From: a virus
Lineage: Duplodnaviria; Caudoviricetes
Length of the DNA stretch: 62,907 nucleotides
Reading direction: 5' to 3' (one strand)
Virus record (IMG/VR): IMGVR_UViG_3300017967_000020
Coordinates: 1 to 62,907 of that record
Made by a program: the position numbers and the translations under genes. The notes under the pieces are model-generated. The model worked only from the letters and a program-made list of their open reading frames with translations, was not told where the DNA came from and ran no database searches. Shown piece by piece: positions 7,842 through 60,781 of this stretch; position 1 is the first letter of the stretch; each line of letters begins with the position of its first letter.

Positions 7842-8198
7842 ATGAAAGTAACAAAAAACTATATCAAGCAACTTGTAAAAGAAGAGCTTCAAGCTGTATT
7901 GGAAAATAATACGGAGTATATCGCTGGTGACGGCGGTGCTGATCGTATTGATGGGGTTAAAACAACCCTTTCTAAAGTTAATCTTGGCGTAAATCATCCA
8001 AAAATGAAAGATGTGAAAGAAAAGTTAAAAAGTATGCCGAATGGATCATTCACCAAAAATACAGCAATGGGCGATGATTTTCTTTATGTTAAGTCTGAGG
8101 AAGGTAATGCCTATTATGCTGCTAATCACCGTGGCAATAATAGGGCAGATTCTGCATATGAAGAATTGGAAGCATTGGGTTACAAAGAAGTTAAGTAA
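7842..8198 (+). CDS. MKVTK-leader family protein (putative internal head protein)
   Basis: N-terminus MKVTKNYIKQLVKEELQAVLE is shared with four other ORFs. Confidence 0.65.
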   Translation: MKVTKNYIKQLVKEELQAVLENNTEYIAGDGGADRIDGVKTTLSKVNLGVNHPKMKDVKEKLKSMPNGSFTKNTAMGDDFLYVKSEEGNAYYAANHRGNNRADSAYEELEALGYKEVK

Positions 8199-8226
8199 TT
8201 CACATTTAAGATAGGAGAAGGAATAA

Positions 8227-8781
8227 ATGGCTACAACATTAGAAATTGTAAAAGGAATTCATCAAGCAGCAGCAAATGCTTATGATGGCTCTCATGATGA
8301 GAGATTTACAGGCAAAGATCTTGCAAAAGAAATCGGATTGCGTAGAGAAGAAGGGTGTGCGATCAAGGACTCAAGAGTTATTGACGGCTTCAATGTAAAA
8401 GTATCTGGTAACGAATTGCATATTATCTATCATACAGAAGTTACAGCAAAAGAATCTCACAACGCTCAATTGGAATCCGACATTGAACAAAGCATTGCTG
8501 ACATTGTAAAGTTTCTTAAGAAGGAATACAGAAAGGTTGCTGAAGGTTCTTTATCGTTAGGTAAGCCAGAAGAGATTGAAATACGTATGGAGTACATCTC
8601 TAGACAAAGAGTGTCAATTATTGCTAAACAACGTTTTGTTATTAGTGGGATTGACGCAGAACAAAACAACTCTCCTGAGTCCCAAGAAGATCGTTTGGAT
8701 AAATCAATTAAAGATTTTCTTTCTATGGGAAGAGAGCAAGCCAAGAAGCCTTCAAACTACACAGCGAAAAATGAGCAATAA
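8227..8781 (+). CDS. Hypothetical protein upstream of terminase
   Basis: 184-aa ORF with RBS, abutting the terminase start; no motif recognised. Confidence 0.55.
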   Translation: MATTLEIVKGIHQAAANAYDGSHDERFTGKDLAKEIGLRREEGCAIKDSRVIDGFNVKVSGNELHIIYHTEVTAKESHNAQLESDIEQSIADIVKFLKKEYRKVAEGSLSLGKPEEIEIRMEYISRQRVSIIAKQRFVISGIDAEQNNSPESQEDRLDKSIKDFLSMGREQAKKPSNYTAKNEQ

Positions 8782-10376
8782 TGATATCAAAACAGCAAGC
8801 CGTACAAGAAATTCTAAAGTGTGGCAAGTCTCAAGAGTACTTTGTCAATAACTTTTGCCGCATTCCACATGCGGTTCATGGTTTGGTGCGTTTCGATACA
8901 TACGACTTTCAAGACGAACTGCTAGATGATCTAGAGAAGTATCGCTTCAATGTTGTCCTTAAAGCAAGACAGATGGGTATTTCAACAATTGTTGCTGCTC
9001 ATATCTCTTGGCTAATGATGTTTCACAAGCATAAGAAGGTTCTTATCCTCTGTACCAAACTTGAGACAGCAAAGAACGTTGTTATCAAAGTGAAAGAGAT
9101 GGTAAAAAGTCTGCCTGATTGGATGCAAATTGCAAAGATCACAGTCGACAACAGAACCTCATTCGAACTATCAAATGGCTCTTGGATCAAGGCTTCTTCT
9201 ACATCAGGAGATGCAGGACGTTCGGAAGCACTTTCTTTGCTTGTTCTTGACGAGGCTGCTTTCATTCCTGACATGGAAGAGTTATGGACTGGTATATATC
9301 CTACAATCTCTACAGGGGGACGCTGTATTGCCCTCTCAACGCCTAATGGTGTTGGTAACTGGTTTCACACCACCTATGTCGATGCAGTATCTGGAGTGAA
9401 CGCTTTCAAGCCCACAGTACTACACTGGAGTAGGCATCCGGATAGAGATAAGGAGTGGTTCGAAAATGAAACTAAAAATCTATCTCCGAGACAAATCGCA
9501 CAAGAGTATGAGTGTAACTTCAATGCTTCTGGTGAGACTGTTATTGCTCCTGATGATATTGAAAGAATTGAGAAGATGGTTTGTGAGCCAAAGCACAAAG
9601 TAGGGTATGATAGGAATTATTGGATTTGGGAAGAGTGCCAAGATGGAAAGAAGTATGTATTGGTGGCTGACGTTGCAAGGGGTGATGGGGCTGACTATTC
9701 TGTATTCCACGTTGTCAATACGGATACAATGGAAATCGTTGCAGAATATAAAGGAAAGCCAAACATTGATGACTTTGCAAATATGCTTTACTCGGCAGGT
9801 AGAGAATATGGTGAATGCTTACTGGTGGTTGAGAACAATAATATCGGATATTCAGTTCTTGAGAAGCTAATCGAGATGGAATATCCAAATATTTATTTCA
9901 GTGTCAAAGGATCAGGCGAGTACATAGAGCAGGTTTCTGCGATAGGAAACCAAAGTGCTGTTCCGGGCTTTACAACATCTATGAAAACTCGTCCATTAAT
10001 TATTGCCAAATTAGAGGAGTTCGTCAGAAATAAACTAATTACTATAAAATCTTTACGTTTATTGAATGAATTAAAGACTTTTGTGTGGTATTTGGGAAAA
10101 CCTCAAGCCATGAAAGGATATAACGATGATTTGGTAATGGCACTGGCTATTGCTTGTTGGGTTAGAGACACAGCAATCATCGCTTCCAAAAGGGGAGAGG
10201 AGTTGCAAAAAGCTATGCTAAATTCAATGGTTTACACAAATACAGTTTTGAACACAAATATCAGAGGGCAACAAGGCTATAACAAAACTAATGCTACTTT
10301 CGATCCAGCACCACAAGGAAGTCTTGAAGAACATAGGCGTAATTTAGATAAATTTAGTTGGATATTCAAAGGATAA
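8781..10376 (+). CDS. terL: Terminase large subunit (T4 gp17-like)
   Basis: Walker A KARQMGIST, Walker B LVLDEAAF, STPNG coupling motif, nuclease ADVARG and DDLVMA. Confidence 0.95.
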   Translation: MISKQQAVQEILKCGKSQEYFVNNFCRIPHAVHGLVRFDTYDFQDELLDDLEKYRFNVVLKARQMGISTIVAAHISWLMMFHKHKKVLILCTKLETAKNVVIKVKEMVKSLPDWMQIAKITVDNRTSFELSNGSWIKASSTSGDAGRSEALSLLVLDEAAFIPDMEELWTGIYPTISTGGRCIALSTPNGVGNWFHTTYVDAVSGVNAFKPTVLHWSRHPDRDKEWFENETKNLSPRQIAQEYECNFNASGETVIAPDDIERIEKMVCEPKHKVGYDRNYWIWEECQDGKKYVLVADVARGDGADYSVFHVVNTDTMEIVAEYKGKPNIDDFANMLYSAGREYGECLLVVENNNIGYSVLEKLIEMEYPNIYFSVKGSGEYIEQVSAIGNQSAVPGFTTSMKTRPLIIAKLEEFVRNKLITIKSLRLLNELKTFVWYLGKPQAMKGYNDDLVMALAIACWVRDTAIIASKRGEELQKAMLNSMVYTNTVLNTNIRGQQGYNKTNATFDPAPQGSLEEHRRNLDKFSWIFKG

Positions 10377-10381
10377 AGACA

Positions 10382-12322
10382 ATGGCTGACAAGAAAAAGA
10401 ACCCAAGAAACCCACAGAGTACTCTGTATAAAAGGTTGACAAAATTACTTTCATCTCCTATCGTCAATAGGCGAACACAGATGCAAAGACGTTATAAACG
10501 AGCAGATATGGACAAGTATAATTTCAATTCTGCTATGGGATTGGACTTTAAGAAGACTTCGTACAATCCATATGATAATATGACTGCAAATATCATGGCA
10601 AATCAAAATCGCTATGAAAGATATATGGACTTTGATCAAATGGAGTATACTCCTGAGATTGCTTCTGCTCTTGATATTTACGCAGATGAAATGACTACTT
10701 CTACAATGCTGTCTCCGATGTTGAACATAAAATGTCCAAATGACGAAATTAAAATGATTCTCAAAAATCTATATGAAGAGATTCTTAATGTAGATTTAAA
10801 TTTATTTGGCTGGAGTCGTTCATTGTGTAAGTTTGGCGATTTTATGTTATATCTAGACATTGATGCTACATTGGGGATTCGACATGCTATTTCTCTGCCT
10901 ATTGATGAGGTTGAAAGACTCGAGGGCGAAGACAAGACAAATCCTAATTATATTCAATATCAATGGAATTCTGGAGGTTTGACTTTTGAAAACTGGCAGA
11001 TCGCACATTTTAGAATTTTGGGCAATGACAAGTATGCTCCTTATGGAACATCAGTCCTTGAGCCTGCTAGAAGAATCTGGAGACAACTTACTTTATTGGA
11101 AGATGCCATGATGGCTTATCGTATTGTTCGTTCGCCAGAGAGAAGAGTGTTTTATATTGATGTTGGTAACATTGCCTCTCAAGATGTAGAACAATTTATG
11201 CAGCGTGTCACTACACAGATGAAAAGAAATCAATTAATTGATGCCAACACTGGACGTGTAGATCTACGCTACAACCCGTTATCCATCGATGAGGACTATT
11301 TCATTCCTGTTAGGGGTGGCAATAGCTCTAGGGTTGAATCATTGCCTGGTGGATCTTATACGGGCGATATTGATGATGTTAAATATTTGCGTGATAAATT
11401 ATTCTCCGCTCTCAAAGTTCCCATGTCTTACCTTTCCAGAGGAGATGGACAAACAGAAGATAAAGCAACACTTGCTCAGAAAGATATTCGTTTCGCAAGA
11501 ACCATTCAAAGACTACAAAGATCTGTAATCTCAGAATTAGAAAAGATTGGATTGGTTCATCTTTATACATTAGGTTATCGTGGTGATGATCTTATATCAT
11601 TTAAGTTGCTTTTAAACAATCCGTCAAAGATCGCAGAACTTCAGGAACTTGAACACTGGAAACAGAAATTTGATATTGCTGGTGCTGCTACTGAAGGCTT
11701 CTTCTCTAAGCGTTGGATCTCTGAAAATATTCTTGGAATGTCTGATGAAGAATTCTTAAGAAACCAGAGAGAAATGTTCTATGATAAGAAGATGGCTTCT
11801 ATGCTCGAGAAAGCTTCTGAGGAGGTTCCTGCCTCTGCTCCTGATACTGGAGCATCTGGTGGTGCCGGTGGCGGACTTGATCTCGGTGGCGGCGGCGGAG
11901 GCGCTGGTGGCGGACTTGATCTCGGCGGTGGTGATGCTGGAGGCGGAGAAGCACCTGCTGGTGACGCTGGTGGAGGTGCCGGCGGTGGAGACGAAGGTGG
12001 AGGAGCAGAATCCTCCTTACTCGCAGCACCGGGAAACAGAAGTCGTGATAAAGATGGCAAAGTATCCAGAGGTGACGGCAAAGGTAGAAGAAAGATTAAG
12101 CCTGTTAAAGATGCCGAAGCAGGTAGAGCAGCAAGAACAAATAGTACAAAAGCTGTCACTAATCCAATGAAAAGAATGTTCAGTGATCCTATCGCTAACA
12201 TCGTAAATACGGTATATGAATCGGAAGAAAAACAGATTTACGATAAAGAAGAGAAGCAACTATTTAATATTAGCCACGATTTGAAAGTGCTACTTGAAAG
12301 TATGGAGCCTAAAGAAAAATGA
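10382..12322 (+). CDS. Portal protein (T4 gp20-like) with Gly-rich C-terminal tail
   Basis: LLEDAMMAYRIVRSPERRVFYIDVGN, EDYFIPVRGG, LPGG and DIRFARTIQRLQ are gp20 hallmarks; start at ATG 10382. Confidence 0.95.
   Translation: MADKKKNPRNPQSTLYKRLTKLLSSPIVNRRTQMQRRYKRADMDKYNFNSAMGLDFKKTSYNPYDNMTANIMANQNRYERYMDFDQMEYTPEIASALDIYADEMTTSTMLSPMLNIKCPNDEIKMILKNLYEEILNVDLNLFGWSRSLCKFGDFMLYLDIDATLGIRHAISLPIDEVERLEGEDKTNPNYIQYQWNSGGLTFENWQIAHFRILGNDKYAPYGTSVLEPARRIWRQLTLLEDAMMAYRIVRSPERRVFYIDVGNIASQDVEQFMQRVTTQMKRNQLIDANTGRVDLRYNPLSIDEDYFIPVRGGNSSRVESLPGGSYTGDIDDVKYLRDKLFSALKVPMSYLSRGDGQTEDKATLAQKDIRFARTIQRLQRSVISELEKIGLVHLYTLGYRGDDLISFKLLLNNPSKIAELQELEHWKQKFDIAGAATEGFFSKRWISENILGMSDEEFLRNQREMFYDKKMASMLEKASEEVPASAPDTGASGGAGGGLDLGGGGGGAGGGLDLGGGDAGGGEAPAGDAGGGAGGGDEGGGAESSLLAAPGNRSRDKDGKVSRGDGKGRRKIKPVKDAEAGRAARTNSTKAVTNPMKRMFSDPIANIVNTVYESEEKQIYDKEEKQLFNISHDLKVLLESMEPKEK
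11867..11925 (+). repeat. 20-bp direct repeat GGTGGCGGACTTGATCTCGG x2 (GGGLDLGG) in portal tail
   Basis: Copies at 11867-11886 and 11906-11925. Confidence 0.85.
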
Positions 12323-13697: not shown

Positions 13698-14513
13698 GTG
13701 AAAGAGTTGTTAAAAGAATGGAAACAATATTCCGAATATCATGAATTATTTGAGCGCCAAGAGTACATTGAGCTTGCATTAGGGATCAAGCCATTATTGA
13801 ATGAGAATGGTGGATCATACTATACTTCAGAAATGAAGGATCAGATCATTGAAGAGCATCTACTGTTTGAAGGGTTCTTTGATAGATTTAATCCTATTGC
13901 TGCAATCAAAAAGTATGGCGAAGAAGTTGGATCTTTATTTACGACTTTGTACGATGTCATCAAGAATCCTAAATATATACCTGATTTTGTTTCTGCAATA
14001 ATTAAAGAAATCTTAAACGATTGGAAAAGAAAAATAAATTCTGTCGTAACTTGGCTAGAAGGAAAGAACATGCCAACGTTTGCTGCTGGATTAAAAAAGA
14101 TTGTAGGTGGAATAAACTCTATTATTAATATGCAAGTTAATTGGAAGAAAGCTGTTCTTATCACTGGTGTTGTTGTCGGGGTTTCTTATCTTTTTGAGAA
14201 ACTAAAAGATGTTGGACTAGATATTCTTGGTGGGATTGGAGACGTCAAAGATAAAGTATTGGAAGCTGCTGAAAATTTCATAACTACAGAATTTCCCAAG
14301 ATTGTGACTAGTCTATATGGAAAAGCTGCACTTGCGGCATCATTAGGATTTCTTGGATGGATTGCAGCCGCTATAGCAGTCATAAAGGTTGTGAACTTAG
14401 CAAAAGACGCTCTTAAGCCGATGTTCGCAAAGTTTAAGCTTTTGAGTCAAAGAAGAGATGACAGAGAGAAGACTGCACAAGATGGCATACTTAGACTAGA
14501 AAACAAGGATTAA
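13698..14513 (+). CDS. Hydrophobic protein with a MKxLxxEW-type leader (possible ejected membrane protein)
   Basis: N-terminus MKELLKEWKQY resembles MKHKLIMENWRRF of 31155/31917; two hydrophobic segments in the C-terminal half. Confidence 0.45.
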   Translation: MKELLKEWKQYSEYHELFERQEYIELALGIKPLLNENGGSYYTSEMKDQIIEEHLLFEGFFDRFNPIAAIKKYGEEVGSLFTTLYDVIKNPKYIPDFVSAIIKEILNDWKRKINSVVTWLEGKNMPTFAAGLKKIVGGINSIINMQVNWKKAVLITGVVVGVSYLFEKLKDVGLDILGGIGDVKDKVLEAAENFITTEFPKIVTSLYGKAALAASLGFLGWIAAAIAVIKVVNLAKDALKPMFAKFKLLSQRRDDREKTAQDGILRLENKD

Positions 14514-14515: not shown

Positions 14516-14812
14516 GTGCAACTACTTTGGTTTATATTATCAGCCTATGGCTTGACGCAGATATTAGTCTATGGATCAATCTTTAAATCATTCAGGGACT
14601 ATGCCTTAAAATATACGAAACTTTTATCTTGTCCAATGTGTACAGGATTTTGGGTTGGAGTTATTTTATTCTTCCTTAATCCTTTTACAGAACTATTTAC
14701 ATTTGAAATAAATTTAGCAAATTTTTTAATTTGCGGCTGGTTATCGTCTGGGACTTCCTATATATTGTGTATGCTATTTGACGACGATGGCTTAAAAATT
14801 ATGAGGAAATAA
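14516..14812 (+). CDS. DUF1360-like small membrane protein
   Basis: Hydrophobic, with the LLSCPMCTGFWVG motif. Confidence 0.6.
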   Translation: MQLLWFILSAYGLTQILVYGSIFKSFRDYALKYTKLLSCPMCTGFWVGVILFFLNPFTELFTFEINLANFLICGWLSSGTSYILCMLFDDDGLKIMRK

Positions 14813-14813: not shown

Positions 14814-14951
14814 ATGAATATTAAGATCCCCAAAAAAAGAGCAATGGAAATCATGAAAGAAGAGATCGAAAAGTTCTTGCAAGAAAACAAGAATGTCGAT
14901 AGAAAACTTTTGGAATCCTACATTTCAAAGACAACAGGAGAAAAGAAATGA
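14814..14951 (+). CDS. Small ORF missing from the track, 45 aa, divergent MKVTK-leader family
   Basis: MNIKIPKKRAMEIMKEEIEKFLQENKNVDRKLLESYISKTTGEKK; GAGGA RBS; stop overlaps the next ATG (ATGA). Confidence 0.6.
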   Translation: MNIKIPKKRAMEIMKEEIEKFLQENKNVDRKLLESYISKTTGEKK

Positions 14952-15406
14952 GAGTTACAAAATCTTATATTAAACAACTTGTAAAAGAAGAACTTACTAA
15001 GGTTCTTAACGAGTCGGCTCCTACCGATTCTGCTAAAAAAATCATGAACTATCTTAAAGATGTTTATGTTTTGCCAGATGATGAAGAGCATTTTAATGAT
15101 TTGTCATCTCATATGGGAGGTTTTCCACCAACTTTCGAAGAATTAAAAGCAAAAATCGAAAGAGAAACAGGGGAACCATATGCTAAAGTGTTATCCTTCC
15201 TTAAAACAATGCGCTCTGACACATACGATAGAATTGATTCAGAATATTTAGGAAAGCATGATCAGTACGATACTGCAAAACCATTCTCATATGGCGACAA
15301 GTCAGATCCCGGCGACTGGAAGAAAAAGAAACGTGCTGCTGCAGGAAGAAGGTATGGTGTCGGCGATGCTATCAAACGAGGTACTCTCAAGGAGACTGAA
15401 AAATGA
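14948..15406 (+). CDS. MKVTK-leader family protein
   Basis: MRVTKSYIKQLVKEELTKVLNE leader; basic C-terminus. Confidence 0.65.
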   Translation: MRVTKSYIKQLVKEELTKVLNESAPTDSAKKIMNYLKDVYVLPDDEEHFNDLSSHMGGFPPTFEELKAKIERETGEPYAKVLSFLKTMRSDTYDRIDSEYLGKHDQYDTAKPFSYGDKSDPGDWKKKKRAAAGRRYGVGDAIKRGTLKETEK

Positions 15407-16101
15407 AAGTAACAAAATCTTATATTAAAAGAATTATCAAAGAAGAGTTAACTCAGGTTATCAAAGAATTCGATCTAGATGCCTTTGACTCAGATACAGG
15501 CGCAGGAGAGTCTGATGAAGAAAGATGGATAAGAGAAAGAGAAGAAGACTTTGCTGACTTTATGAAGGAGGTGTTTGGTGCGTTTCACAATATCGCAACT
15601 AACGAAAAGGCAGCCGTCATCGCAGCAATGAATCTTCAGAGACAACCAGAATTGTTCAAGTCTTTTAATATTTTATACAAACTATTGTCTCAAATCGTAC
15701 AAGGAAACACAAACGTTGCGCTTCAAAAAGTAGATGAAGGATCTATCAAATGTCCTACGGGTGATGCTTTTGAGGAGTGCGCTGAAACAAAGATAAAAGA
15801 GTTCTACTCAGTCGATCCACTATTCAGTAAACTGGGTAGAGCAATAGAAAAGTTAGATTATGATTTTAGTAGTAGTTTTAGAGACTCATCTAAGGGCCCT
15901 TATTATGGTAGTGGCTTCTTGGCTGTTTCTAAGATTGCCCCAGATGATGATGCTAAGCAACGAAAAATTTATGAATACTTTAATAAGAATATTAAAAATA
16001 TTTATGAATTTATGTCTAGATATGGATTTAATCCTAGCAATTATGCAGGCGGCGATGTCAGATATCTAGAGGGCGGAATGTCAAAGAGAGGTGAAATATG
16101 A
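15403..16101 (+). CDS. MKVTK-leader family protein
   Basis: MKVTKSYIKRIIKEELTQVIKE leader. Confidence 0.65.
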   Translation: MKVTKSYIKRIIKEELTQVIKEFDLDAFDSDTGAGESDEERWIREREEDFADFMKEVFGAFHNIATNEKAAVIAAMNLQRQPELFKSFNILYKLLSQIVQGNTNVALQKVDEGSIKCPTGDAFEECAETKIKEFYSVDPLFSKLGRAIEKLDYDFSSSFRDSSKGPYYGSGFLAVSKIAPDDDAKQRKIYEYFNKNIKNIYEFMSRYGFNPSNYAGGDVRYLEGGMSKRGEI

Positions 16102-16151
16102 TGATTAGATGGATGCTACAACCAGTAAGAAGATGTAAGAACGGGTGTTGA
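16098..16151 (+). CDS. Possible 17-aa peptide MMIRWMLQPVRRCKNGC
   Basis: GAGGTG RBS; ATGA overlap with the upstream stop; fills the gap to the protease gene. Confidence 0.35.
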   Translation: MMIRWMLQPVRRCKNGC

Positions 16152-16154: not shown

Positions 16155-16766
16155 ATGAGTAAAGTTTTATTAAGAGAATATTATGAATTATGTGAAGGCG
16201 GTGTTTGCCAAGACATGCTTACCGAAGCAGAAAAGAAATATGTTGCTAACGGTGGAATGATCTTGACAGGTAAACTGCAAGAAGCAGAAGTTCAGAATGG
16301 AAACGGAAGAGTGTATCCTAGAAAGATCCTCGAAAGAGAAATGAAGAACTATATGATGCTTGTTAAGGATAGGAGAGCATTGGGAGAGTTAGATCACCCA
16401 GATGATTCTGTTATCAATTTAAAGAATGCTTCACATATGGTTACAGACGCATGGTGGGATGGTAATAATGTTATGGGTAAAGTTAAAATCCTTAACACAC
16501 CGTCTGGCAAGATTTTACAACAACTTGTCAATGACGGTGTTAAGTTGGGTATTAGTAGTCGGGCTCTTGGTTCTGTCAATGAATCAGGAGGAAAAACGAT
16601 GGTACAAGAAGATCTTCAGCTTATTTGCTTTGATTTCGTTAGCGAGCCTTCTACTCCTAATGCATTTATGGCACTACAAGAAGCAAAAAATATCAGAATT
16701 GAAACAGATATTTTCGACAAGAAATATAAACTAAACAGAATGCTAAACGAAATTTTAGAGGATTAA
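16155..16766 (+). CDS. Prohead protease (T4 gp21-like)
   Basis: NGNGRVYP, GELDHP, GISSRA (catalytic Ser) and DFVSEPS motifs. Confidence 0.93.
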   Translation: MSKVLLREYYELCEGGVCQDMLTEAEKKYVANGGMILTGKLQEAEVQNGNGRVYPRKILEREMKNYMMLVKDRRALGELDHPDDSVINLKNASHMVTDAWWDGNNVMGKVKILNTPSGKILQQLVNDGVKLGISSRALGSVNESGGKTMVQEDLQLICFDFVSEPSTPNAFMALQEAKNIRIETDIFDKKYKLNRMLNEILED

Positions 16767-17207
16767 ATGAATAAGAAAGAACTAAAACAACTTATCAAGC
16801 CACTTGTAAAAGAGTGCATTAAGGAAGCGTTGCTTGAAGAAGGAATGCTTTCAACTGTTATTGCTGAAGTTGTTAAAGGCACTTCTGGGCTTGTAGAGCA
16901 AAGAAGTCATAAAATTCAAGAGACTACAGAGAGAGTCTTGGATACAAATGAAGATGCAATGCGTAGACTTCAAGAAAGAAAGGTACAACAACAAACTCAA
17001 AAAAGAAAACTACTTGATGCTATTGGCGCAGGTGCTTATGGCGGCGTAGATCTTTTTGAAGGAACAGAGCCTTTAACAAAGGCTGGTAAAGTAGGGGATG
17101 GTGCATCTGCTCAAGGCGCATTGTCAAGTTACGCTCCAGATGATTCAGGAGTTGATATTTCAGGATTGCTAAATTTAGCAGGCGGTTCTTGGAAAAAAAT
17201 CAAATAA
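16767..17207 (+). CDS. Head-module protein with a leader related to the MKVTK family
   Basis: MNKKELKQLIKPLVKECIKEALLEE. Confidence 0.5.
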   Translation: MNKKELKQLIKPLVKECIKEALLEEGMLSTVIAEVVKGTSGLVEQRSHKIQETTERVLDTNEDAMRRLQERKVQQQTQKRKLLDAIGAGAYGGVDLFEGTEPLTKAGKVGDGASAQGALSSYAPDDSGVDISGLLNLAGGSWKKIK

Positions 17208-17671: not shown

Positions 17672-17890
17672 ATGAGTAAAAAAAGTATAATGACTGTGAC
17701 TCCGAGAAGAAACGAGTCGCAAGAAAGAATGATTAAAAGATTCATCCGAAAATGTAAAAAGAAGGGCATCATTGATGAAGTAAAAGAAAGAAGATACTTC
17801 AAAACAAATTCCGAAAAGAAGAATGAAAGGAATAGAAAAAGAAAAAGAGCCATCGAGAAAGCAAAAGCGAAAGAAAAAGGCAGGAGATGA
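17672..17890 (+). CDS. rpsU: Phage-encoded 30S ribosomal protein bS21
   Basis: 72-aa basic protein with V...NES.ERMIKRFIRKCKKKGIIDEVKERRYFKTNSEK, matching the bS21 pattern (E..ERALRRFKR....GI..E...R.YYEKPS). Confidence 0.85.
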   Translation: MSKKSIMTVTPRRNESQERMIKRFIRKCKKKGIIDEVKERRYFKTNSEKKNERNRKRKRAIEKAKAKEKGRR

Positions 17891-26553: not shown

Positions 26554-27675
26554 ATGTCATTATTGAAACAAGCAATAGTTGATGCTGCCAACTTAAAAGA
26601 AGCAGCTCTTAAGAACGCAGAGCAGATGATTCTTGAGAAATATTCAAATGAAATTAAATCTGCTGTTGATACTTTGCTTGAAGCAGAAGAAGAAGGTGGT
26701 TTAGATCTTGGTGGCGATCCTGCAGGAGAAGGTGATCTTGCAGATGATACTACAGAAGATATGGATCCTAGCACTTTTGAAGAAGAAAATTTAATCCCAC
26801 CCTCATATATGGAAGGAGAACAAATTGCTTCTAAAAATGGAGAAATGTCTTTTTCAACTCCAGATGAAGGTGAAACTATTGATATCAACATCAGCCCAGA
26901 AGAATTGGCTCAATTTTTGAGAGACGCTGATCAAAATGAATCAGGACAATATATCGATTCAAAATTAGACAATTTTCAATCACAGATGGATGATGATCAA
27001 GTTGAGATTGACTTGTCTCAGCTTGCAGATCTTTCTGACGAAGAAGAATTGGGTTTTGATGACGATGAAATCATGGAATTACCAGATGATTTAGAAGGCA
27101 TGGAAAGAATGGTAGCAGAAGTCTTGGATGTAGATCACAAACCACAGCCACATGGAATGAATGGGCAACTTGGTGGTGGACTTAATTCTGTTGAGTTAGA
27201 AAATGCTATCGATATGGCTCTGGCAAAAGCAATGTCAGATGACATGCAAGAAGAAAATGAAGAATTAAAAGATACTCTTGCGGAACTTGAAGAGCAAGTT
27301 CAACATTTGCAAGAGCAAAATAAAAAGTTTAAATCCGTAACAATTCAATTGAAAGATAAACTGGAAGAATCAGTTATTACCAATGCCAAATTGTTATACT
27401 CAAATCGTGTACTTATTAGTGCCTCCCTGAATGAGCGACAAAAATCTAAAATTGTCGAAGCCTTAAATAATGCACACACCGTAGATGAAGCAAAGACTAT
27501 CTATGAAACACTTCAGAGCACAGTGGGAGATAATACAAACTCTCCTCAAACACTGAGCGAAGCGATTAATAGAAACGCTGGGCGATCTTCTACACTTCCG
27601 AGACGTGCTCCTGAGAAGGAGACTCTCAATGAAAATGCCACATCGAGAATGTTGAAACTCGCTGGCATTAAATAA
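26554..27675 (+). CDS. Prohead scaffold/core protein (gp22-like)
   Basis: Very acidic with a coiled coil, immediately before the capsid gene; ends RMLKLAGIK; many (L/I)xE sites. Confidence 0.75.
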   Translation: MSLLKQAIVDAANLKEAALKNAEQMILEKYSNEIKSAVDTLLEAEEEGGLDLGGDPAGEGDLADDTTEDMDPSTFEEENLIPPSYMEGEQIASKNGEMSFSTPDEGETIDINISPEELAQFLRDADQNESGQYIDSKLDNFQSQMDDDQVEIDLSQLADLSDEEELGFDDDEIMELPDDLEGMERMVAEVLDVDHKPQPHGMNGQLGGGLNSVELENAIDMALAKAMSDDMQEENEELKDTLAELEEQVQHLQEQNKKFKSVTIQLKDKLEESVITNAKLLYSNRVLISASLNERQKSKIVEALNNAHTVDEAKTIYETLQSTVGDNTNSPQTLSEAINRNAGRSSTLPRRAPEKETLNENATSRMLKLAGIK

Positions 27676-27706
27676 GACAATATTAATTAATTTGGAGGAA
27701 AATATT

Positions 27707-29467
27707 ATGTCTATCGTTGAAAAATTAACTGAAGGTATTGTCAGACGTGATCTTGCTAAAGAAGGTGCTGCTCTGTTGAACAAATGGGAACGCACTGGTT
27801 TGTTGGAAGGTTTGGATTCTGATTATGCTAAAAACAATATGGCTTCTCTTCTTGAGAACCAAGCTAAGGAATTGCTTCGTGAGGCTTCTTTGATGTCTCA
27901 AGGTGATGTTGAAGGTTTCGCTGCTGTTGCTTTTCCTATCGTACGTCGTGTATTCGGCTCTTTGATCGCTAACGATCTTGTATCTGTTCAGCCTATGTCT
28001 TTGCCATCTGGTTTGATCTTCTTCTTGGACTTTAAATTTGGTTCTGAAGGTGGCGGTATGCCAAGAACTGGTTTTTATGAAGATGAATCAATCTACGGAC
28101 AAGGTGTCATTGGTTCACAATTGACTGGTGGTGTTGACATGAACAACCTTACTGAAGACAAGCAGCCGTTTGGACTTCAAGCAGGTTTCGCTCATGCTTC
28201 TGGTAATGTTGCATCAAATGCATCTGCAGTCGTACACGGACTTGAGTTTGTTGATTCTGGAACTGTTGGTTCTGATGCTGACATTGATAAGTTGGTTCAG
28301 TTCGATCCAGATCTTGCTGCAGGAACATTGATTACTGTTGCTCGTCTTACTCTTTCTGAATTGGATCAAATTGATTCTACAGAAAAAGGACTTAAGCATC
28401 TTGTTGTTCAATCTGCCTCTGCTCGTCCTGGGCTTATTGATGGTGCTAGCATTCTTTCTTGTTCTGCTGATCTTAGTCAAGTTCGTCGTTTGACTAAACT
28501 TTCCGGAACTGCTACTGATCATGCATTGCTTTTCTTCACTGGCTCAAACGTATGTTCTGCATCTGCTGGCGATGAATTGTTTTCTACTGCTAATATCAAA
28601 TTCCGATATCGTGCCACTGATGATATCGTAACTGGTTCTGGCTTGGGCTCTGTTGTTGGGCAATCCCAATGGCAATTGGAAGCACAAGAAAGCATTCCAG
28701 AAATCGAAATCAAAGTTGACAGTATTTCCGTAACTGCTCAAACCAAAAAGTTGAAAGCAAAGTGGAGTCCTGAGTTGGGGCAAGACTTGAATGCTTACCA
28801 CAACTTGGATGCTGAAGTTGAGTTGACTTCTATCTTGTCTGAACAAATCGCTTTGGAAATCGATCGTGAAATCTTGGCTGATTTGATTAGTGGTGCTAAA
28901 GCTGCTACTTATTACTGGAGTCGCTCTCCTGGTTTGTTCGTGAACAAGACTACTGGTGCTGCTATCGTTACTTCTAGTACTGTTGCTCCTGATTTCACTG
29001 GAAACGTTTCTGAATGGTATGAGACTTTGATCGAAACCATCAATGATGTTTCTGCTCAAATCCATAGAAAGACATTGCGTGGTGGCGCTAACTTCTTGGT
29101 TTGCGGCCCTGAAGTTGCTAACATCTTGGAATTCACCTCTGGTTTCCGTGCTAACGTTTCTCATGCTGATGAGAAAGGTACTGTTGGCGCTGTTAACGTA
29201 GGTTCTATCTCTAAGAAGTTCGATGTTATGGTTGATCCATACTTCCCACGAAATGTTATTTTGGTTGGACGTAAAGGTAACTCTTTCTTGGAAAGCGGTT
29301 ATGTATACGCTCCTTATGTCCCATTGCAAGTGACTCCTACTATCTTCGGTACTGAAGACTTCGTTCCTCGTAAAGGTGTTATGACACGCTATGCGAAGAA
29401 GATGGTTCGTCCAGATATGTACGGTTTGGTTATCGTTCGTGGATTGTTGGGAGGCGATAACGCCTAA
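27707..29467 (+). CDS. Major capsid protein (T4 gp23-like)
   Basis: LLENQ, VQPMSLPSGLIFFL, KLKAKWSPELGQDLNAYH, EIDREIL, YAPYVPL and GVMTRYA; GGAGG RBS before ATG 27707. Confidence 0.97.
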   Translation: MSIVEKLTEGIVRRDLAKEGAALLNKWERTGLLEGLDSDYAKNNMASLLENQAKELLREASLMSQGDVEGFAAVAFPIVRRVFGSLIANDLVSVQPMSLPSGLIFFLDFKFGSEGGGMPRTGFYEDESIYGQGVIGSQLTGGVDMNNLTEDKQPFGLQAGFAHASGNVASNASAVVHGLEFVDSGTVGSDADIDKLVQFDPDLAAGTLITVARLTLSELDQIDSTEKGLKHLVVQSASARPGLIDGASILSCSADLSQVRRLTKLSGTATDHALLFFTGSNVCSASAGDELFSTANIKFRYRATDDIVTGSGLGSVVGQSQWQLEAQESIPEIEIKVDSISVTAQTKKLKAKWSPELGQDLNAYHNLDAEVELTSILSEQIALEIDREILADLISGAKAATYYWSRSPGLFVNKTTGAAIVTSSTVAPDFTGNVSEWYETLIETINDVSAQIHRKTLRGGANFLVCGPEVANILEFTSGFRANVSHADEKGTVGAVNVGSISKKFDVMVDPYFPRNVILVGRKGNSFLESGYVYAPYVPLQVTPTIFGTEDFVPRKGVMTRYAKKMVRPDMYGLVIVRGLLGGDNA

Positions 29468-31154: not shown

Positions 31155-31913
31155 ATGAAACATAAATTAATAATGGAAAACTGGAGACGGTTTGTAAACG
31201 AAGAAGTTCAAGATGATTCTTGGAAGTATTATGGTGATGAAGGTAGAAGTGATGCCCAATTAAGAGCAGATCGAGATTGGAAAAGGGAATGGAATTCTAA
31301 GGCTGATCAAGATTTTTTCAAAAATGAAGTCAAGAAAGTTCATTGGGTAGGCGGAGTTCATAAGGTTGCTGACTCTAGCGCTCAAGAGCCTCAACTCATT
31401 GGTGACTTAAAGTCGTGGGGAAATATTACTTCTACACATAAAGATGAATTATCTTGTATTGGGTACTTAGGTTTGCCTATGGAAGATAGTTTGGGCATGG
31501 CTTTAGGGCTTTTGGTTGATGGCTACACATCTTATGCTGCTGCAGGTGACATACAAACTGAATGGACTTCTACCGCAGAAGAGGAAGATATTGAAAAACA
31601 TGCTTCATCCGGATTAGCAAAAAGAGCGAATATAAAAGATAATGCTATGTACGATAAAGAAACATTTGTAGAACCATCGCAATCTCCGGGCGGATATAAT
31701 GAATTAATTGTCGATAATTGGAAGGCTGTAGGTGTGGTACTCAAAGTTAATCACAGGTATTTTAAATGGATGTATAAAAATATGAAATCTGAAAAATTTC
31801 GAAATATCAAAGCAATTAGACAAAAAGAAATAAAAGATATCATGGAACATTGTAGATCTATGGGAATTCCTTTGCTAGATGCTAGCCTAGATCCAATTGA
31901 GGAGCAGGCGTAA
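31155..31913 (+). CDS. MKHxLIMENW-leader protein, ADP-ribosyltransferase-like cargo (tentative)
   Basis: Leader MKHKLIMENWRRFVNE; spaced VHW / ELSC / YNELIV motifs recall the ART core. Confidence 0.4.
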   Translation: MKHKLIMENWRRFVNEEVQDDSWKYYGDEGRSDAQLRADRDWKREWNSKADQDFFKNEVKKVHWVGGVHKVADSSAQEPQLIGDLKSWGNITSTHKDELSCIGYLGLPMEDSLGMALGLLVDGYTSYAAAGDIQTEWTSTAEEEDIEKHASSGLAKRANIKDNAMYDKETFVEPSQSPGGYNELIVDNWKAVGVVLKVNHRYFKWMYKNMKSEKFRNIKAIRQKEIKDIMEHCRSMGIPLLDASLDPIEEQA

Positions 31914-31916: not shown

Positions 31917-32627
31917 ATGAAACATAGATTAATAATGGAAAACTGGAGACGTTTTGTGAACGAAGCAGCATTGGGTTTTGGTTCTGAAGGTTTATCTGAA
32001 CTTGGAGATATGACTTTTAGGATTGAAAATGATGGTGGATACTATACCATAAGGGCATTAGATGGTTCCGGATCTGAATTAGGGTTCGTAGATCTTGACG
32101 ATTCATATGCTTCTGATTGTGGAATCTTTGTTACTCATTCTGAAATTACAAATCCAGAAAAAGCATCTTTCGGCCCATTTCTTTATGATTTGGCGATAGA
32201 GTTAGGTACTTTGGTGGGATCGGGCGTAACGTCATCATCAAATCCAAGCGGACTTACCGCTACAGATTCGGAAAAAAGCAAATCTATGGCAATTAATGTT
32301 TGGACTTATTATTACGAGAGAAGAGCTGATATCACAAAATTTCCTTTAACTTGTGTTGCAATGCTAGATGGTAGATATATTTTGCACAAAGGAATGTACA
32401 TTTTCCCAGATCACAAGCATTCGCACATGATAATTAATACTGTAAAACAAGGAGATAAATATTCTCACAAAGATCCTCCCAGTAATCTATTAACTAGGGT
32501 TAATGCGATTAACCACTTCTATTCAAAAGATCCAATTTTCTTAGATCAACTTAAGGCTATGGGCAAATTAGAAGACACTGCAAATGTACTAGAAGAAGGA
32601 GCAAGACAGTATGTCAAAAAAGGATAA
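31917..32627 (+). CDS. MKHxLIMENW-leader protein, GNAT acetyltransferase-like cargo (tentative)
   Basis: Leader MKHRLIMENWRRFVNE; LGFVDL..FVTHS..KASFGPFLYDLAIE..MAINVWTYY resembles GNAT motifs A/B. Confidence 0.5.
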   Translation: MKHRLIMENWRRFVNEAALGFGSEGLSELGDMTFRIENDGGYYTIRALDGSGSELGFVDLDDSYASDCGIFVTHSEITNPEKASFGPFLYDLAIELGTLVGSGVTSSSNPSGLTATDSEKSKSMAINVWTYYYERRADITKFPLTCVAMLDGRYILHKGMYIFPDHKHSHMIINTVKQGDKYSHKDPPSNLLTRVNAINHFYSKDPIFLDQLKAMGKLEDTANVLEEGARQYVKKG

Positions 32628-57209: not shown

Positions 57210-57239
57210 TGAATAAAAACGACTGTTCAAACGTATAAT
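57210..57239 (+). promoter_or_regulatory. Putative early/middle promoter TGAATA-N16-CGTATAAT
   Basis: Bipartite motif before the GroES-like gene and thyX. Confidence 0.65.
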
Positions 57240-57254
57240 ATAAGAGGAGGAATT

Positions 57255-57524
57255 ATGAAACCAGTTAATAGACATTTATTGGTAGAAATACCAGTTGTAG
57301 AAGAAGAGGAAGTATCATCAACTTTTCTCTTGCCTGAGTCTTATAAGACAAAGGAAGTGCAGCGATATACGAGAGTTCGTATTATTGCTTGCGCAGATGA
57401 TTGCAAAGCCAACTATAGTGGCGAGGCATATGTAGAAACATCAATGATCGAGGATATCTCTATCAACGGTGAATTATATCATATTGTCCCTGAAAACTAT
57501 TTAGTACTGTTATTGGAGGCATAA
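57255..57524 (+). CDS. GroES-like co-chaperonin
   Basis: MKPVNRHLLVE..FLLPES..I.INGE.Y.IV.E..L pattern; 89 aa. Confidence 0.65.
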   Translation: MKPVNRHLLVEIPVVEEEEVSSTFLLPESYKTKEVQRYTRVRIIACADDCKANYSGEAYVETSMIEDISINGELYHIVPENYLVLLLEA

Positions 57525-58246
57525 TGGATGAAAAGACAATTTACTTATATGGAGATGATATCGGCAGCGTTTCTCTCGTTAATCACATGGGTGACGACAT
57601 CACTGTTGTTAATTCTGCAAGGGTTTCTTTTGGTGTCGAGAAACACGAACTCGATAGAAGAGACAAGCGCCTTATCAATTACCTTATTAAACATCGCCAC
57701 ACATCAACTCTTGAGCATAATCTTATTACTTTCAAATTCGTTGTCCCTTTGTTTGTGCGTTCTCAGCACCACAGGCATCGTACTTGGAGTTATAATGAGA
57801 TTAGTCGCAGATATACGGACAAAGATCTCAGGTTCTACGAACCACTGATGTTCAGAACTCAGCATGAGAGCAACCGTCAGGCATCAAATCAGGATGATGT
57901 AGCAAATCCTACAATTGCACCACAGTTCATCGATTCTTACATATCTGCAGCAGATGCAGTAAAATCATGGCATAACCAGTCGTTAGACTTTTTTAATAAG
58001 TTGATCGATGCGGGTGTCTGCCGAGAACAAGCAAGAGGTGTGCTGCCTCAGAATCTCTACACTGAGTATTATGGAACAGTGAACCTCAACAACCTTTTGA
58101 AGTTCATTGACTTGAGAACTCATGAAGGAGCGCAATGGGAGATCCAGAAAGTAGCAGAAGCCTGCTTGGATATCGCAACAGAACTGTTCCCAGTTACTGT
58201 GAACGCATATAGGAAGATTAGAAATGAAACCCAATCCTCATCGTGA
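57524..58246 (+). CDS. thyX: Flavin-dependent thymidylate synthase
   Basis: VNSARVSF, HTSTLEH, RHRTWSYNEISRRY, EQARGVLP and AQWEI. Confidence 0.95.
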   Translation: MDEKTIYLYGDDIGSVSLVNHMGDDITVVNSARVSFGVEKHELDRRDKRLINYLIKHRHTSTLEHNLITFKFVVPLFVRSQHHRHRTWSYNEISRRYTDKDLRFYEPLMFRTQHESNRQASNQDDVANPTIAPQFIDSYISAADAVKSWHNQSLDFFNKLIDAGVCREQARGVLPQNLYTEYYGTVNLNNLLKFIDLRTHEGAQWEIQKVAEACLDIATELFPVTVNAYRKIRNETQSSS

Positions 58247-59036
58247 AACAGATCTTTACTTTGATAAGGTAATAATCGGAAGCTCAGTCCAGGCAATGGT
58301 TACAGCATACAAATATGAAATTCCGATCTTTATAGATCAGACTCATAAACCATTGCCATTCTATCACATTCCTCCAGAATTGGATCTGTCTCAGATTGAT
58401 GTCAATAACCAAACTATGGAATATACTCTTCTCTCTGGTAAAAAAGAATTAAGAGGCATGCAGAAATTAGAACTATGGAATATTATGGCTTATAGATTGG
58501 GCATTATGGGACTACTTCCGATGTATGGAAAATATGAAAATAGATTTACTGAGAAGATTCCAATGAATAATAATATTCGAATGTTCACGATTAAAGCAGA
58601 CAATAAAGTAACGCATGTACATTCGAAAAAAACTATACTTTTTGATTATCAAAAATATATTGGAGGGAGTAGAACCTATATGGTTAATGATTATATCGAT
58701 TTGGATAGGACACATGACTTTAAGGCTGACTTGTTTGTGTCAAAAGATTGTGATTTCAAAGATACTTTATGCTTTGAAACAGTCTTTTTCAAAACAAAAA
58801 GAAGAAAGCATAGAATATGCGCTAAATCTATAATTTCGGAGTCCGCACTCCAATCTTGGAAATATAGTCAGACTTCTGTAAGACTAAAAACAGAAAGTTC
58901 CATATTCTGGAATCTGGAAAAAGACTTCGGACTAATATTAGGTGAAAGAGAGATTTGCCCAATAATGAACAGGATGGAAGATTCACTAGAAAACATTGTT
59001 AATTTTGATATTATGGATATGGAGATTTATAAGTGA
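58224..59036 (+). CDS. Hypothetical protein (degenerate Rossmann-like N-terminus)
   Basis: FDKVIIGSSVQAMVTAY resembles the start of a dinucleotide-binding fold but lacks a full GxGxxG. Confidence 0.4.
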   Translation: MKPNPHRETDLYFDKVIIGSSVQAMVTAYKYEIPIFIDQTHKPLPFYHIPPELDLSQIDVNNQTMEYTLLSGKKELRGMQKLELWNIMAYRLGIMGLLPMYGKYENRFTEKIPMNNNIRMFTIKADNKVTHVHSKKTILFDYQKYIGGSRTYMVNDYIDLDRTHDFKADLFVSKDCDFKDTLCFETVFFKTKRRKHRICAKSIISESALQSWKYSQTSVRLKTESSIFWNLEKDFGLILGEREICPIMNRMEDSLENIVNFDIMDMEIYK

Positions 59037-59920
59037 GTAATTTAAATTTCCACTTAGCAGGCATAATACCTCTATCGTCTATTCCATTGAACTACAATAT
59101 ACCTTACCACCCTTGCTTGCTTCCATTGGATGATAACTATCTGATGATTCATAGGGCTATTATGGAATGTGCTTGGGCAGGGTGTGAAACAATATGGATT
59201 GTTGCAGATCCAGACATTCAGCCAATGTTCAAGAAGGTGATAGGAGATTATGTTTATGATCCTGTAAACTATCACCGCCCAATGGATCCAGATAGATTTG
59301 CTAAAAGAAGCATGATTCCAATCTACTTTACTTCGATTGACATTAAAAATAGAAACAAGCGAGATTCATATGGATGGAGCATCATAGAAGGCGCATATAT
59401 GGCTTATAGGGTATCTAATCAACTTTCCAAGTGGGTAGTGCCAAGTATGTATTATGTGGCTTTTCCTTGGAGTTTATATCCTCCTGAGATAGTAAGAGAA
59501 TTCAGAAAGCCAATATCTACACATAAAAGATTCAGAATCACTTCTCAAGGCGAGGGGATCAAACAGGGCAAGATGATGGGCTTTACTTTTAATGAAGAAG
59601 ATTTCATCAACTGTCGTGCTTGGGTTAGGAAAGAAGGGACAGGTAGATATGTTCCCGGAGGCAAGAAGAATGAACAAGGTTTACCTAGAGAGTTATTGCC
59701 TGCAGAAGAAAGATGGAGTGGTAGACATTTTCAACTTGAAGATGTTTTCTGTAAGCTAGGAGAAGAAGCGACAAGTCTTGATCTTCCTTATTACTTTGAT
59801 GCCACTTCTTTCAAAGGTTATCGTGATTGGGCGGCATCTCAAATTGAGATATCTAAGCCTCCTGTAGAGAAGTGGATAGAGCCTTCAAGATATAAAAAAT
59901 CTTTATTGGAATTTGAGTGA
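59033..59920 (+). CDS. Sugar-nucleotidyltransferase-like protein (degenerate)
   Basis: LAGIIPL..PCLLPL..MIHRAIMECAWAGCETIWIV resembles the NTP_transferase N-terminus. Confidence 0.5.
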   Translation: MSNLNFHLAGIIPLSSIPLNYNIPYHPCLLPLDDNYLMIHRAIMECAWAGCETIWIVADPDIQPMFKKVIGDYVYDPVNYHRPMDPDRFAKRSMIPIYFTSIDIKNRNKRDSYGWSIIEGAYMAYRVSNQLSKWVVPSMYYVAFPWSLYPPEIVREFRKPISTHKRFRITSQGEGIKQGKMMGFTFNEEDFINCRAWVRKEGTGRYVPGGKKNEQGLPRELLPAEERWSGRHFQLEDVFCKLGEEATSLDLPYYFDATSFKGYRDWAASQIEISKPPVEKWIEPSRYKKSLLEFE

Positions 59921-59935
59921 TTAACAAATTAATTC

Positions 59936-59945
59936 ACTATTTATT
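59936..59945 (+). promoter_or_regulatory. Late promoter motif inside the replication block
   Basis: ACTATTTATT, 41 nt before the MKVTK gene at 59977. Confidence 0.65.
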
Positions 59946-59948
59946 CTG

Positions 59949-60491
59949 AAAATCATTCATTTAAGGAGAATTTAAAATGAAAGTAACAAAATCCTATATC
60001 AAACAACTCGTAAAAGAAGAGTTAAACAGAGTCCTAGAAGAAGAGATGGCTCCATATGGAATGGATCCATATAAACTTCCACGTAAAGGTACTGTTGGCG
60101 AATATACTTGGGAAGCCCTCTTGGGCAAAAAACAAGGTGGCGCTCAAGATATAACAATTAGAGTTACCGGTGGTGGAAAAACCGTTGCTTGGGATTTTCA
60201 CAGTCACCCAACATCCCTTGCAACAATGTTGGGAAAACTCAACAATGAACCAGATGAGGCAGAACAATACATTCAGATGGCATTAAAAAATGGCAAAGAT
60301 GTAACCCCGATGAAAGGTGGGAATGAGTGGTATGGTGGCAAGTCATCAAATTCAGGCGTATCTTCAGCACAAGATAAATACTGGAACAGATAACAAATGG
60401 CAATACTAAAAAAAATCATTCATTCAAGGAGAATTTAAAATGAAAGTAACAAAATCTTATATCAAACAACTCGTAAAAGAAGAGCTAAACA
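59949..60491 (+). repeat. 80-bp direct repeat (RBS + MKVTK leader) x2
   Basis: 59949-60028 and 60412-60491 differ at 3 positions. Confidence 0.9.
59977..60393 (+). CDS. MKVTK-leader family protein
   Basis: MKVTKSYIKQLVKEELNRVLEE leader. Confidence 0.7.
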   Translation: MKVTKSYIKQLVKEELNRVLEEEMAPYGMDPYKLPRKGTVGEYTWEALLGKKQGGAQDITIRVTGGGKTVAWDFHSHPTSLATMLGKLNNEPDEAEQYIQMALKNGKDVTPMKGGNEWYGGKSSNSGVSSAQDKYWNR

Positions 60492-60781
60492 ACATGCTGA
60501 GAGAAGCTAATGCTTGCTATGAATGGAGCAAATCGGCAAAATCACCCGCAGGACAAGACTTGACAGTACATCAACGATGCTCCAACTCTGGGGAACCCCG
60601 TTATTTCTTGGAGATTTTTGGAGATAAATCACCGGGCAAATACTCCATTGGAGAAGAATTTGCTAATCAAATTATGCATAATAATTATGATGCTCAGAAC
60701 GCAAAAAAGATCGACAATGCATTTTTGATGAAATCTGATCTGGCAGTTAAAGCTTTTGATGTCTATGTTCACAATCGTTAA
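60440..60781 (+). CDS. MKVTK-leader family protein
   Basis: MKVTKSYIKQLVKEELNNMLREA leader. Confidence 0.7.
   Translation: MKVTKSYIKQLVKEELNNMLREANACYEWSKSAKSPAGQDLTVHQRCSNSGEPRYFLEIFGDKSPGKYSIGEEFANQIMHNNYDAQNAKKIDNAFLMKSDLAVKAFDVYVHNR

Follow-up and report, generated by a model that had tools for sequence, protein, structure and literature searches.

The internal proteins of bacteriophage T4 are diverse and have only a capsid-targeting sequence (CTS) in common, which loads them into the scaffolding core (PMC3012670). For the CTS 10 residues suffice, the prohead protease gp21 cleaves after L/I-x-E and has a comparable LIE near its own N-terminus, an Asp at the cut position prevents processing while leaving targeting intact, and the CTS is considered a possibly general route by which T4-like phages package varied proteins (PMC9026906). 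Here we describe a short N-terminal leader that heads five otherwise unrelated proteins, and a second leader that heads two more, in an uncultured salt-marsh phage (IMG/VR virus record IMGVR_UViG_3300017967_000020; the whole record, 62.9 kb with an estimated completeness of about 35%, was analysed and is called the window below). Leader 1 is a portable, virus-restricted module that is conserved at the peptide level, is found on unrelated cargos and co-occurs with T4-type head-assembly genes. By analogy with T4, we lean towards reading leader 1 (22 residues) and leader 2 (16 residues) as capsid-targeting propeptides, a lineage-specific, non-homologous and expanded analogue of the T4 CTS.

The likeness to the CTS of T4 internal proteins (IP) IPI, IPII and IPIII and of Alt lies first in a short N-terminal peptide that is the sole common part of unrelated proteins and ends in hydrophobic-x-Glu (h-x-E). 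The phage that carries the leaders also encodes a protease of the gp21 type, a scaffold resembling gp22 and a capsid protein of the gp23 type whose maturation site matches, and its leader genes are spread over several loci, as are ipI and ipII/ipIII in T4. There is, however, no sequence relationship. The T4 N-termini that were read are MKTYQEFIAE↓A in IPII and IPIII, MKTFKEF...TITE↓A in IPI and MAKINELLRE↓S in gp24 (arrows mark the cut positions), and the CTS MKTYQEFIAE has only the initial Met-Lys and the final Glu in common with the leader. The leader is also longer (21-22 residues vs 10 in T4), comes in two classes in one phage, has 5 to 23 members per genome vs the four of T4 (three IPs and Alt), occurs internally and in multiple copies as well and has mostly acidic cargos.

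In the giant phages phiKZ, 201phi2-1 and SPN3US a diverged homolog of gp21 cuts many proteins of the head interior after Glu; AXE and SXE are examples of the cut motif, and SPN3US gp53 and gp54 have an identical 15-residue N-terminus with cut motifs (PMC5694885). Member numbers vary widely across genomes, as they do here, but the propeptides of these phages are mostly longer than 100 residues and sit on paralogs with related cargo, whereas the leaders described here are a shared tag on unrelated cargo. Encapsulin cargo-loading peptides, compared by description, are likewise short portable peptides on diverse cargo associated with an HK97-fold shell. Most of them sit at the C-terminus, and they attach to the shell protein itself and stay uncleaved, with no protease or scaffold; the leader stands at the N-terminus or inside the protein, has a protease motif at its end and is found in phages with a scaffold. 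No published description of the leader was found. The terms leader, internal protein and prohead do not occur in the Far-T4 main text, and its supplementary gene-family tables may bear on the point.

Five leader-1 proteins in the window

The leader-1 start, M(K/R)VTK(S/N)YIK..(V/I)KEEL....h-x-E, was found on exactly five open reading frames (ORFs) of the window, each of them a first-ATG ORF; they are listed here, followed by one marginal candidate (14814):

7842..8198, + strand: leader-1 protein, 118 aa, starting MKVTKNYIKQLVKEELQAVLE; leader residues 1-21, ending AVLE; E 5.3e-12
14948..15406, + strand: leader-1 protein, 152 aa, starting MRVTKSYIKQLVKEELTKVLNE; leader ending KVLNE; E 6.3e-12; in the slot just upstream of the protease
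15403..16101, + strand: leader-1 protein, 232 aa, starting MKVTKSYIKRIIKEELTQVIKE; leader ending QVIKE; E 1.7e-12; immediately upstream of the protease
59977..60393, + strand: leader-1 protein, 138 aa, starting MKVTKSYIKQLVKEELNRVLEE; leader ending RVLEE; E 5.9e-13; in the replication block
60440..60781, + strand: leader-1 protein, 113 aa, starting MKVTKSYIKQLVKEELNNMLRE; leader ending NMLRE↓A; E 2.2e-12
14814..14951, + strand: 45-aa ORF with a marginal leader-like core (..MEIMKEEIEKFLQE); profile E 0.06, 9.9 bits

The E-values are those of a 26-column leader-1 profile (A3), built from 112 leaders and scored against 2113 candidate N-termini of the window. The five ORFs scored between 5.9e-13 and 6.3e-12 and the next candidate, in the 14814 region, only 0.03-0.06. 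Beyond the leader the five proteins share nothing, and none of the five had a BLAST neighbour among 180 cargos, as the part of each protein following the leader is called here. The sequence-only reading, an earlier inspection of the window, had reported five ORFs at three loci with a near-identical leader followed by complete divergence, and the coordinates, profile E-values and cargo comparison all bear this out. It had also counted 14814 and 16767 as looser members; the former is marginal, and the latter is a conserved core gene, described below, and not a leader-plus-cargo protein.

The cargo of 7842 is an orphan, and its ORF adjoins a conserved gene of the 8227 family and the gene for the large terminase (TerL); two relatives (G026 and G010) likewise carry a leader ORF next to TerL. 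A homolog search with 59977 returned itself as the sole match, while 15403 has two close homologs in which leader and cargo are both retained. The AlphaFold2 (AF2) model of 15403, made from 3 sequences, was unusable, with a mean predicted local distance difference test score (pLDDT) of 43.7.

When the leader DNAs of the window were aligned, identity ran from the ATG onward with third-position differences, and only a Shine-Dalgarno box was common upstream. In 181 distinct IMG/VR leader DNAs, synonymous codons were used freely at every conserved residue; Leu8, for example, is encoded by CTT (68), TTA (51), CTA (35), CTC (14), TTG (6) and CTG (4). The identity from the ATG and the free use of synonymous codons indicate that a peptide is conserved and not an RNA or DNA cassette: the conservation of leader 1 acts on the peptide.

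Near-identical DNA to the window is present in 13 salt-marsh metagenome runs. Contigs that match exactly were found in two salt-marsh metatranscriptome runs; some fall within 14948 and 15403, others within the genes for the protease, the fibre and the capsid protein, and one RNA-library contig spans 15846-16097, within 15403. These contigs are a weak hint that the leader ORFs are expressed, as DNA carry-over is possible and they are silent on timing. A DNA-run joint that skips 14843-16107 was considered as a sign of strain-level presence or absence of the leader pair and was set aside as too weak (one contig, a 33-letter side and depth 3.7).

Distribution of leader 1

IMG/VR was scanned with a degenerate DNA pattern that fixed residues 1-15 only and left residue 16 onward free. 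The pattern was found in at least 144 stretches, at no fewer than 190 ORF starts and in at least 186 distinct proteins, with the consensus MKITKSQLKQIIKEEL. Among the matches listed, the leader ORFs were often in tandem, with up to four per 2 kb, and the median length of complete ORFs was 100 aa. When 1.84 billion representative proteins were searched with the profile, 13,749 matched the leader at E <= 1e-3 and 229 at E <= 1e-10. The leader family is much larger than is visible from the window alone. Among large carrier contigs the number of members ranges from 1 to 23, with the maximum on a contig of 289 kb that is 96% complete.

The same DNA pattern was found in only 22 stretches of the 596 Gb of prokaryote genomes scanned, all on contigs titled as metagenome-assembled genomes (MAGs), and the leader was absent from the isolate genomes within that scan. 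Several of the MAG-titled contigs have many copies on one contig of 100-300 kb and look like binned phage. Two contigs, one of 305,838 bp (L196, L206, L207 and L211-L213) and one of 101,404 bp (L201-L205), have 7-8 leader ORFs each; their MAG titles are Methylococcaceae and Halobacteriovorax, and they have the appearance of phage genomes binned into MAGs. On these counts the leaders form genuine families whose cargo is extremely diverse, and they occur on viral or MAG contigs only.

Amongst named phages, the uncultured 484-kb phage LR756508 has 13 leader matches, of the variant form M(R/K)L(S/T)E(R)KLR(K/R)IVKEEI.RVL.E, and Flavobacterium phage immuto, the sole cultured candidate for a carrier, has two weak ones (MKKSQLRQIIKEAL). 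Neither Pfam nor PHROG includes a model of the family. A tblastn search with a consensus-type leader protein against 50,697 phage records returned one irrelevant weak match, the low-complexity filter having probably masked the leader.

A second leader and its cargo

Leader 2, of 16 residues, heads two neighbouring genes, as had been noted from the sequence alone; a looser match, 13698, is listed after them:

31155..31913, + strand: leader-2 protein, 252 aa, starting MKHKLIMENWRRFVNE↓E
31917..32627, + strand: leader-2 protein, 236 aa, starting MKHRLIMENWRRFVNE↓A; cargo residues 25-229
13698..14513, + strand: 271-aa protein with a loose leader-2-like start, VKELLKEWKQY..

The last of these had been counted as a looser match. 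It is not close to leader 2 in sequence, but it does occupy the slot of M..MKVIMENWDRF ORFs in two relatives. Leader 2 was found in 13 IMG/VR stretches with varied cargo, one of them on a contig that also bears leader 1, and protein P0157 carries a variant, KELLKEWKVYLNE. Orthologs of the 31917 cargo have diverged versions of leader 2, every one of which ends in (L/V)-x-E↓(A/S)AL.

The AF2 model of 31917 (pLDDT 81.5, predicted template modelling score 0.81) has a confident domain at cargo residues 25-229 and the leader as a detached helix (residues 2-17), with pLDDT below 50 over residues 1-22. A Pfam search with 31917 gave no match. With Foldseek against the PDB the best E-value for the cargo was only 0.026, and the top rows were nearly all GNATs; a structure comparison (VIA) gave Z up to 7.6 to the GCN5 histone acetyltransferase, with 116 residues aligned at a root mean square deviation of 3.2. 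BFVD rows include NAT_SF proteins, and 14% of the members of an Atlas cluster have PF00583. The 31917 cargo, the only one to give a usable lead, looks GNAT-like at the level of the predicted fold.

Association with T4-type head genes

Nearly every gene of the window is on the + strand, and the T4-type head and tail module, which also includes sheath and tube genes, has the following main features:

8781-10376: large terminase (TerL)
10358-12322: gp20-type portal
16155..16766, + strand: prohead protease of the T4 gp21 type (phrog_207, E 2e-53; 35% identity to T4 gp21), with an N-terminal LLRE↓Y
16767..17207, + strand: conserved head-module protein of about 140 aa, candidate core protein, with the N-terminus MNKKELKQLIKPLVKECIKEALLEE
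26554..27675, + strand: gp22-like scaffold, acidic, 373 aa, directly upstream of the capsid gene; homologs in 18/21 records
27692..29467, + strand: major capsid protein of the gp23 type, with a predicted maturation site LLRE↓A at residues 61-64 (nt 27872-27883)

Among cultured phages, the closest capsid proteins come from Flavobacterium phage immuto (49% identity), Microcystis phage Mel-JY01 and Rhodothermus phage RM378, and identity to the capsid protein of LR756508 is 52%. The replication genes are not T4-like: a DNA polymerase III alpha of the PHP/DnaE type is encoded at 60867-62906 and ThyX at 57524-58246. The polymerase of T4 belongs to family B.

The phrog_207 protease was found in 19 of 30 contigs that carry the leader, including all eight of those of at least 100 kb; the 11 contigs that do not have it are all at most 41% complete. 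The 26554 protein is regarded as a gp22-like scaffold because of its position and composition. Its homologs, where full-length ORFs were recovered, have a conserved N-terminal helix, an acidic middle and a conserved C-terminal domain ending LAGIK. When the leader (30-column alignment A4) was co-folded with the scaffold (alignment A5) the score was 0.00 (mark 0.32), which, as the scaffold's own fold is uncertain, is evidence neither way.

Fourteen relatives share the gene order terminase, portal, 12319 family, 13107 family, membrane protein (14516 family), protease, 16767 family and bS21. They also have zero to two variable ORFs, often headed by the leader, which separate the membrane-protein gene from the protease gene or come right after the latter. 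In the window, as in G007, G013 and G011, leader ORFs immediately precede the protease, whereas in G030 they immediately follow it; looser cases are G026, G004, G016 and G008. In T4 the slot beside the protease holds the prohead core proteins gp67 and gp68.

The 16767 family, which is in neither Pfam nor PHROGs, is a conserved single-copy gene; most of the 14 related contigs have it after the protease. Its alignment (A6) has the N-terminus MKKSELKxLIKPLVKECIxExLxEEG and a C-terminal motif DLFEGT...GVDIS. Profile A3 did not match it, and the resemblance to the leader is weak (hhalign probability 49%, E 1.7e-4). From its sequence and position, 16767 is a candidate prohead core protein and a possible ancestor or partner of the leader.

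Two genes past the protease, a 72-aa ORF (17672-17890, + strand) matches ribosomal protein S21 (PF01165, E 5.6e-09, 36 bits against a cutoff of 27), and a similar basic ORF is nearby in most of the 14 related contigs.

The promoter-like motif ACTATTTA occurs 11 times in the window, all on the + strand, vs 3.4 expected. Copies are located 30-60 nt before the sheath and tube genes and before 29578, 29860, 38950, 17931 and 59977. Two of the copies bear directly on leader genes:

14692..14699, + strand: ACTATTTA, inside the membrane-protein gene and ahead of the run 14814-14948-15403-protease
59936..59943, + strand: ACTATTTA, 41 nt upstream of 59977

These copies fit the placement of leader genes in late-motif regions that had been proposed from the sequence. 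No exact copy was found directly upstream of 7842 or 60440. Of the 14 related contigs, 12 have a CTATTTA within the 3' half of the membrane-protein gene, so placed that it precedes the protease operon (position 14692 in the window; L240-L251), and over the 18 loci examined it is strongly biased by strand, with 35 forward vs 4 reverse copies. The membrane-protein gene in question, of the 14516 family, has a weak match to DUF1360.

The hydrophobic-x-Glu site

All seven members in the window, five with leader 1 and two with leader 2, end in hydrophobic-x-Glu. The ends that had been listed for them (AVLE, VLNE, VIKE, VLEE, MLRE and FVNE) were confirmed, as were the LLRE↓A of the capsid protein and the LLRE↓Y of the protease. 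Among 175 members, 132 have [LIVMF]-x-E ending within residues 17-26, compared with 24, 30 and 35 of 175 in three downstream control windows of 10 residues. This enrichment was not built into the search, as the pattern constrained residues 1-15 only. Its Glu is residue 21 in 41 of the 175 members and residue 22 in 62 (103 together), and no position past residue 22 is conserved. In multi-copy proteins h-x-E is kept in 229 of 303 leader copies.

The capsid proteins of the clade retain LLENQAK(E/Q)LL(R/K)E↓(A/S), the site being kept in 18 clade members. BLAST placed the LLRE↓A of the window in register with FLTE↓A of T4 gp23, which is where T4 cleaves that protein, after Glu65. The h-x-E of the leader matches the capsid protein's own site, including the preceding Leu, and the LLRE↓Y of the protease is conserved among relatives. 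In phiKZ and SPN3US the cut motif is (S/A/G)-x-E, not Leu-x-Glu.

Cargos and multi-copy proteins

The 180 cargos examined beyond residue 24, those of the window included, fell into 161 BLAST clusters, 150 of them singletons. No Pfam match was found for 134 of 136 IMG/VR leader ORFs at E <= 0.001 or for 98 of 99 multi-leader representatives at E <= 1e-4. In one 125-aa leader-1 protein from an IMG/VR contig (L026:117-491, + strand) the cargo is a C-terminal domain of FliG (PF01706, E 1.8e-08, above the cutoff); on this sequence match, the phage protein may imitate the flagellar-switch protein while bearing a head-loading tag. A Pfam match to S_100 in P0002 was rejected as spurious, as it overlaps a leader copy and no stretch passes alone.

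Many ORFs, seen in database proteins and in DNA read with table 11, have two to four leader copies with a separate cargo after each. Examples are L254:224-1411, L255:492-1118, L256:2355-2975, L257 (reverse strand) 7998-8669 and proteins P0002, P0004 and P0013. Internal copies begin with Met in 102 of 173 cases, often after an apparent translated ribosome-binding region ('ENK' or 'ESK'), which indicates that many multi-copy ORFs are fused tandem genes. In a 395-aa ORF with leader copies at residues 165 and 257, the copy at 257 begins Thr-Lys-Ile-Thr-Lys and has no start codon. Read from sequence, the h-x-E in multi-copy ORFs would fit polyproteins cleaved in the head and would equally fit a general docking helix.

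Proposed role and alternatives

For the tagged proteins we infer core binding, cleavage, presence in the virion and ejection into the host. The leader, a free helix ahead of a folded cargo, would bind the scaffolding core of the assembling prohead, formed by the gp22-like scaffold 26554 and perhaps the conserved 16767-family protein. The gp23-type shell would form around this core and enclose the tagged protein, and the gp21-type protease 16155 would then cut after the Glu of the leader's h-x-E, the same kind of site as the LLRE↓A of the capsid protein. The cargo, freed inside the head, would leave with the DNA at infection. Every computational test run fits the core of the idea proposed earlier, that of two portable address labels on interchangeable cargo, each ending in a prohead-protease site, in a phage with T4-type head assembly; it needs correction in the status of 16767, the existence of internal and C-terminal copies and the acidity of the cargos.

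Several observations weigh against a capsid-targeting role. The cargos are mostly acidic (97 of 137, with a median net charge of -4); IPII and IPIII of T4 are basic. The leader module is also internal and C-terminal in the multi-copy ORFs, which a strictly N-terminal signal would not need. Jumbo contigs keep most of their members in long arrays far from the head module (in G003, 16 members in 9 kb lie about 120 kb from the protease); these arrays are without the promoter-like motif (0-1 matches in L254-L257) and resemble early hyperplastic regions. In addition, ACTATTTA also precedes thyX, and so may not mark late genes only. As for the cut site, 43 of 175 members have no h-x-E ending at residues 17-26, and the invariant I-K-E at leader residues 12-14 would also satisfy the cut rule. 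The leader is not measurably amphipathic: its Eisenberg moment (at 100 degrees) is 0.25-0.38, not above that of shuffled sequences, 14-36% of which reach it. Finally, profile A3 had no match in S-PM2, Syn9, P-SSM2, HTVC008M, T4, RM378 or Mel-JY01 (E <= 0.1 for the whole T4 genome and four Kyanoviridae genomes), and no cultured phage with a virion proteome was found to carry the leader (0/7 cultured T4-type phages).

The alternative that survives best, though we consider it unlikely, is that the leader is unrelated to the capsid and serves as a docking helix or degron for one hub, with h-x-E a mere helix end. Candidate hubs are a protease or chaperone of the host, RNA polymerase, the ribosome and a regulator encoded by the phage. 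Such a role would be difficult to reconcile with the consistent presence of a T4-type protease and scaffold in carriers, with members inside the protease operon and with a fixed h-x-E that resembles the capsid site down to the preceding Leu. It would, on the other hand, account for the internal and C-terminal positions and for large arrays that are distant from structural genes, are without a promoter-like motif and have the look of regions for early host takeover; anti-defence and host-takeover factors are typically small and acidic. The absence of the leader from other T4-type clades counts against it, as this fits co-adaptation with the head core of one lineage.

That the leader is a core-assembly motif appears improbable to us. 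Tagged proteins would in that case be expendable prohead core or filler proteins like gp67 and gp68, chopped and expelled before DNA entry with no delivery to the host. Members do occupy the gp67/gp68 slot next to the protease, the conserved 16767-family gene has a leader-like N-terminus, and the cargos are small, acidic and mostly without a recognisable fold or family; T4 gp67, whose sequence was read, is acidic too. However, extreme cargo diversity with up to 23 members per genome is hard to square with filler, and among the leader-2 cargos there is at least one conserved, enzyme-like domain with a confidently predicted fold, while one leader-1 cargo has a FliG_C domain.

The repeat might instead act as RNA or DNA, for example to enhance translation initiation or as a cassette for recombination, or it might be a low-complexity match due to chance, with no functional peptide in either case. 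This view might be suggested by the A-rich leader at ORF starts, by tandem genes with overlapping start and stop codons and by internal copies that often follow a translated Shine-Dalgarno region, i.e. gene fusions from tandem arrays, but is close to refuted by the free synonymous codon use at conserved residues, by upstream conservation limited to the ribosome-binding site, by the missing start codon in some internal copies and by five matches at E <= 6e-12 among 2113 N-termini followed by a gap to E 0.03, together with the 13,749 database matches.

Implications

If the leader acts like the T4 CTS, as we favour, one short profile would label thousands of unknown phage proteins as capsid cargo. 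A bolder and decidedly more tentative extension is that leaders 1 and 2 together may be a sequence-readable capsid-loading tag of a large uncultured T4-head lineage that includes jumbo members, with more than 10,000 dark-matter families packaged in virions and injected into hosts. If so, the tagged set would include enzymes (GNAT-like), a FliG_C mimic and multi-cargo polyproteins cut by the head protease, and the injectome would be far larger and more diverse than the four internal proteins of T4. A head-delivered modifying enzyme, should the 31917 cargo be one, would parallel T4 Alt. The tag would also be a natural, portable means of loading foreign proteins into the heads of non-coli phages, and its members would provide a searchable list of what abundant aquatic phages inject before gene expression, likely to be anti-defence and host-takeover factors. 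The CTS principle of the T-even phages would then have arisen, or diverged beyond recognition, in another lineage with a T4-type head and would have expanded there up to 23-fold per genome.

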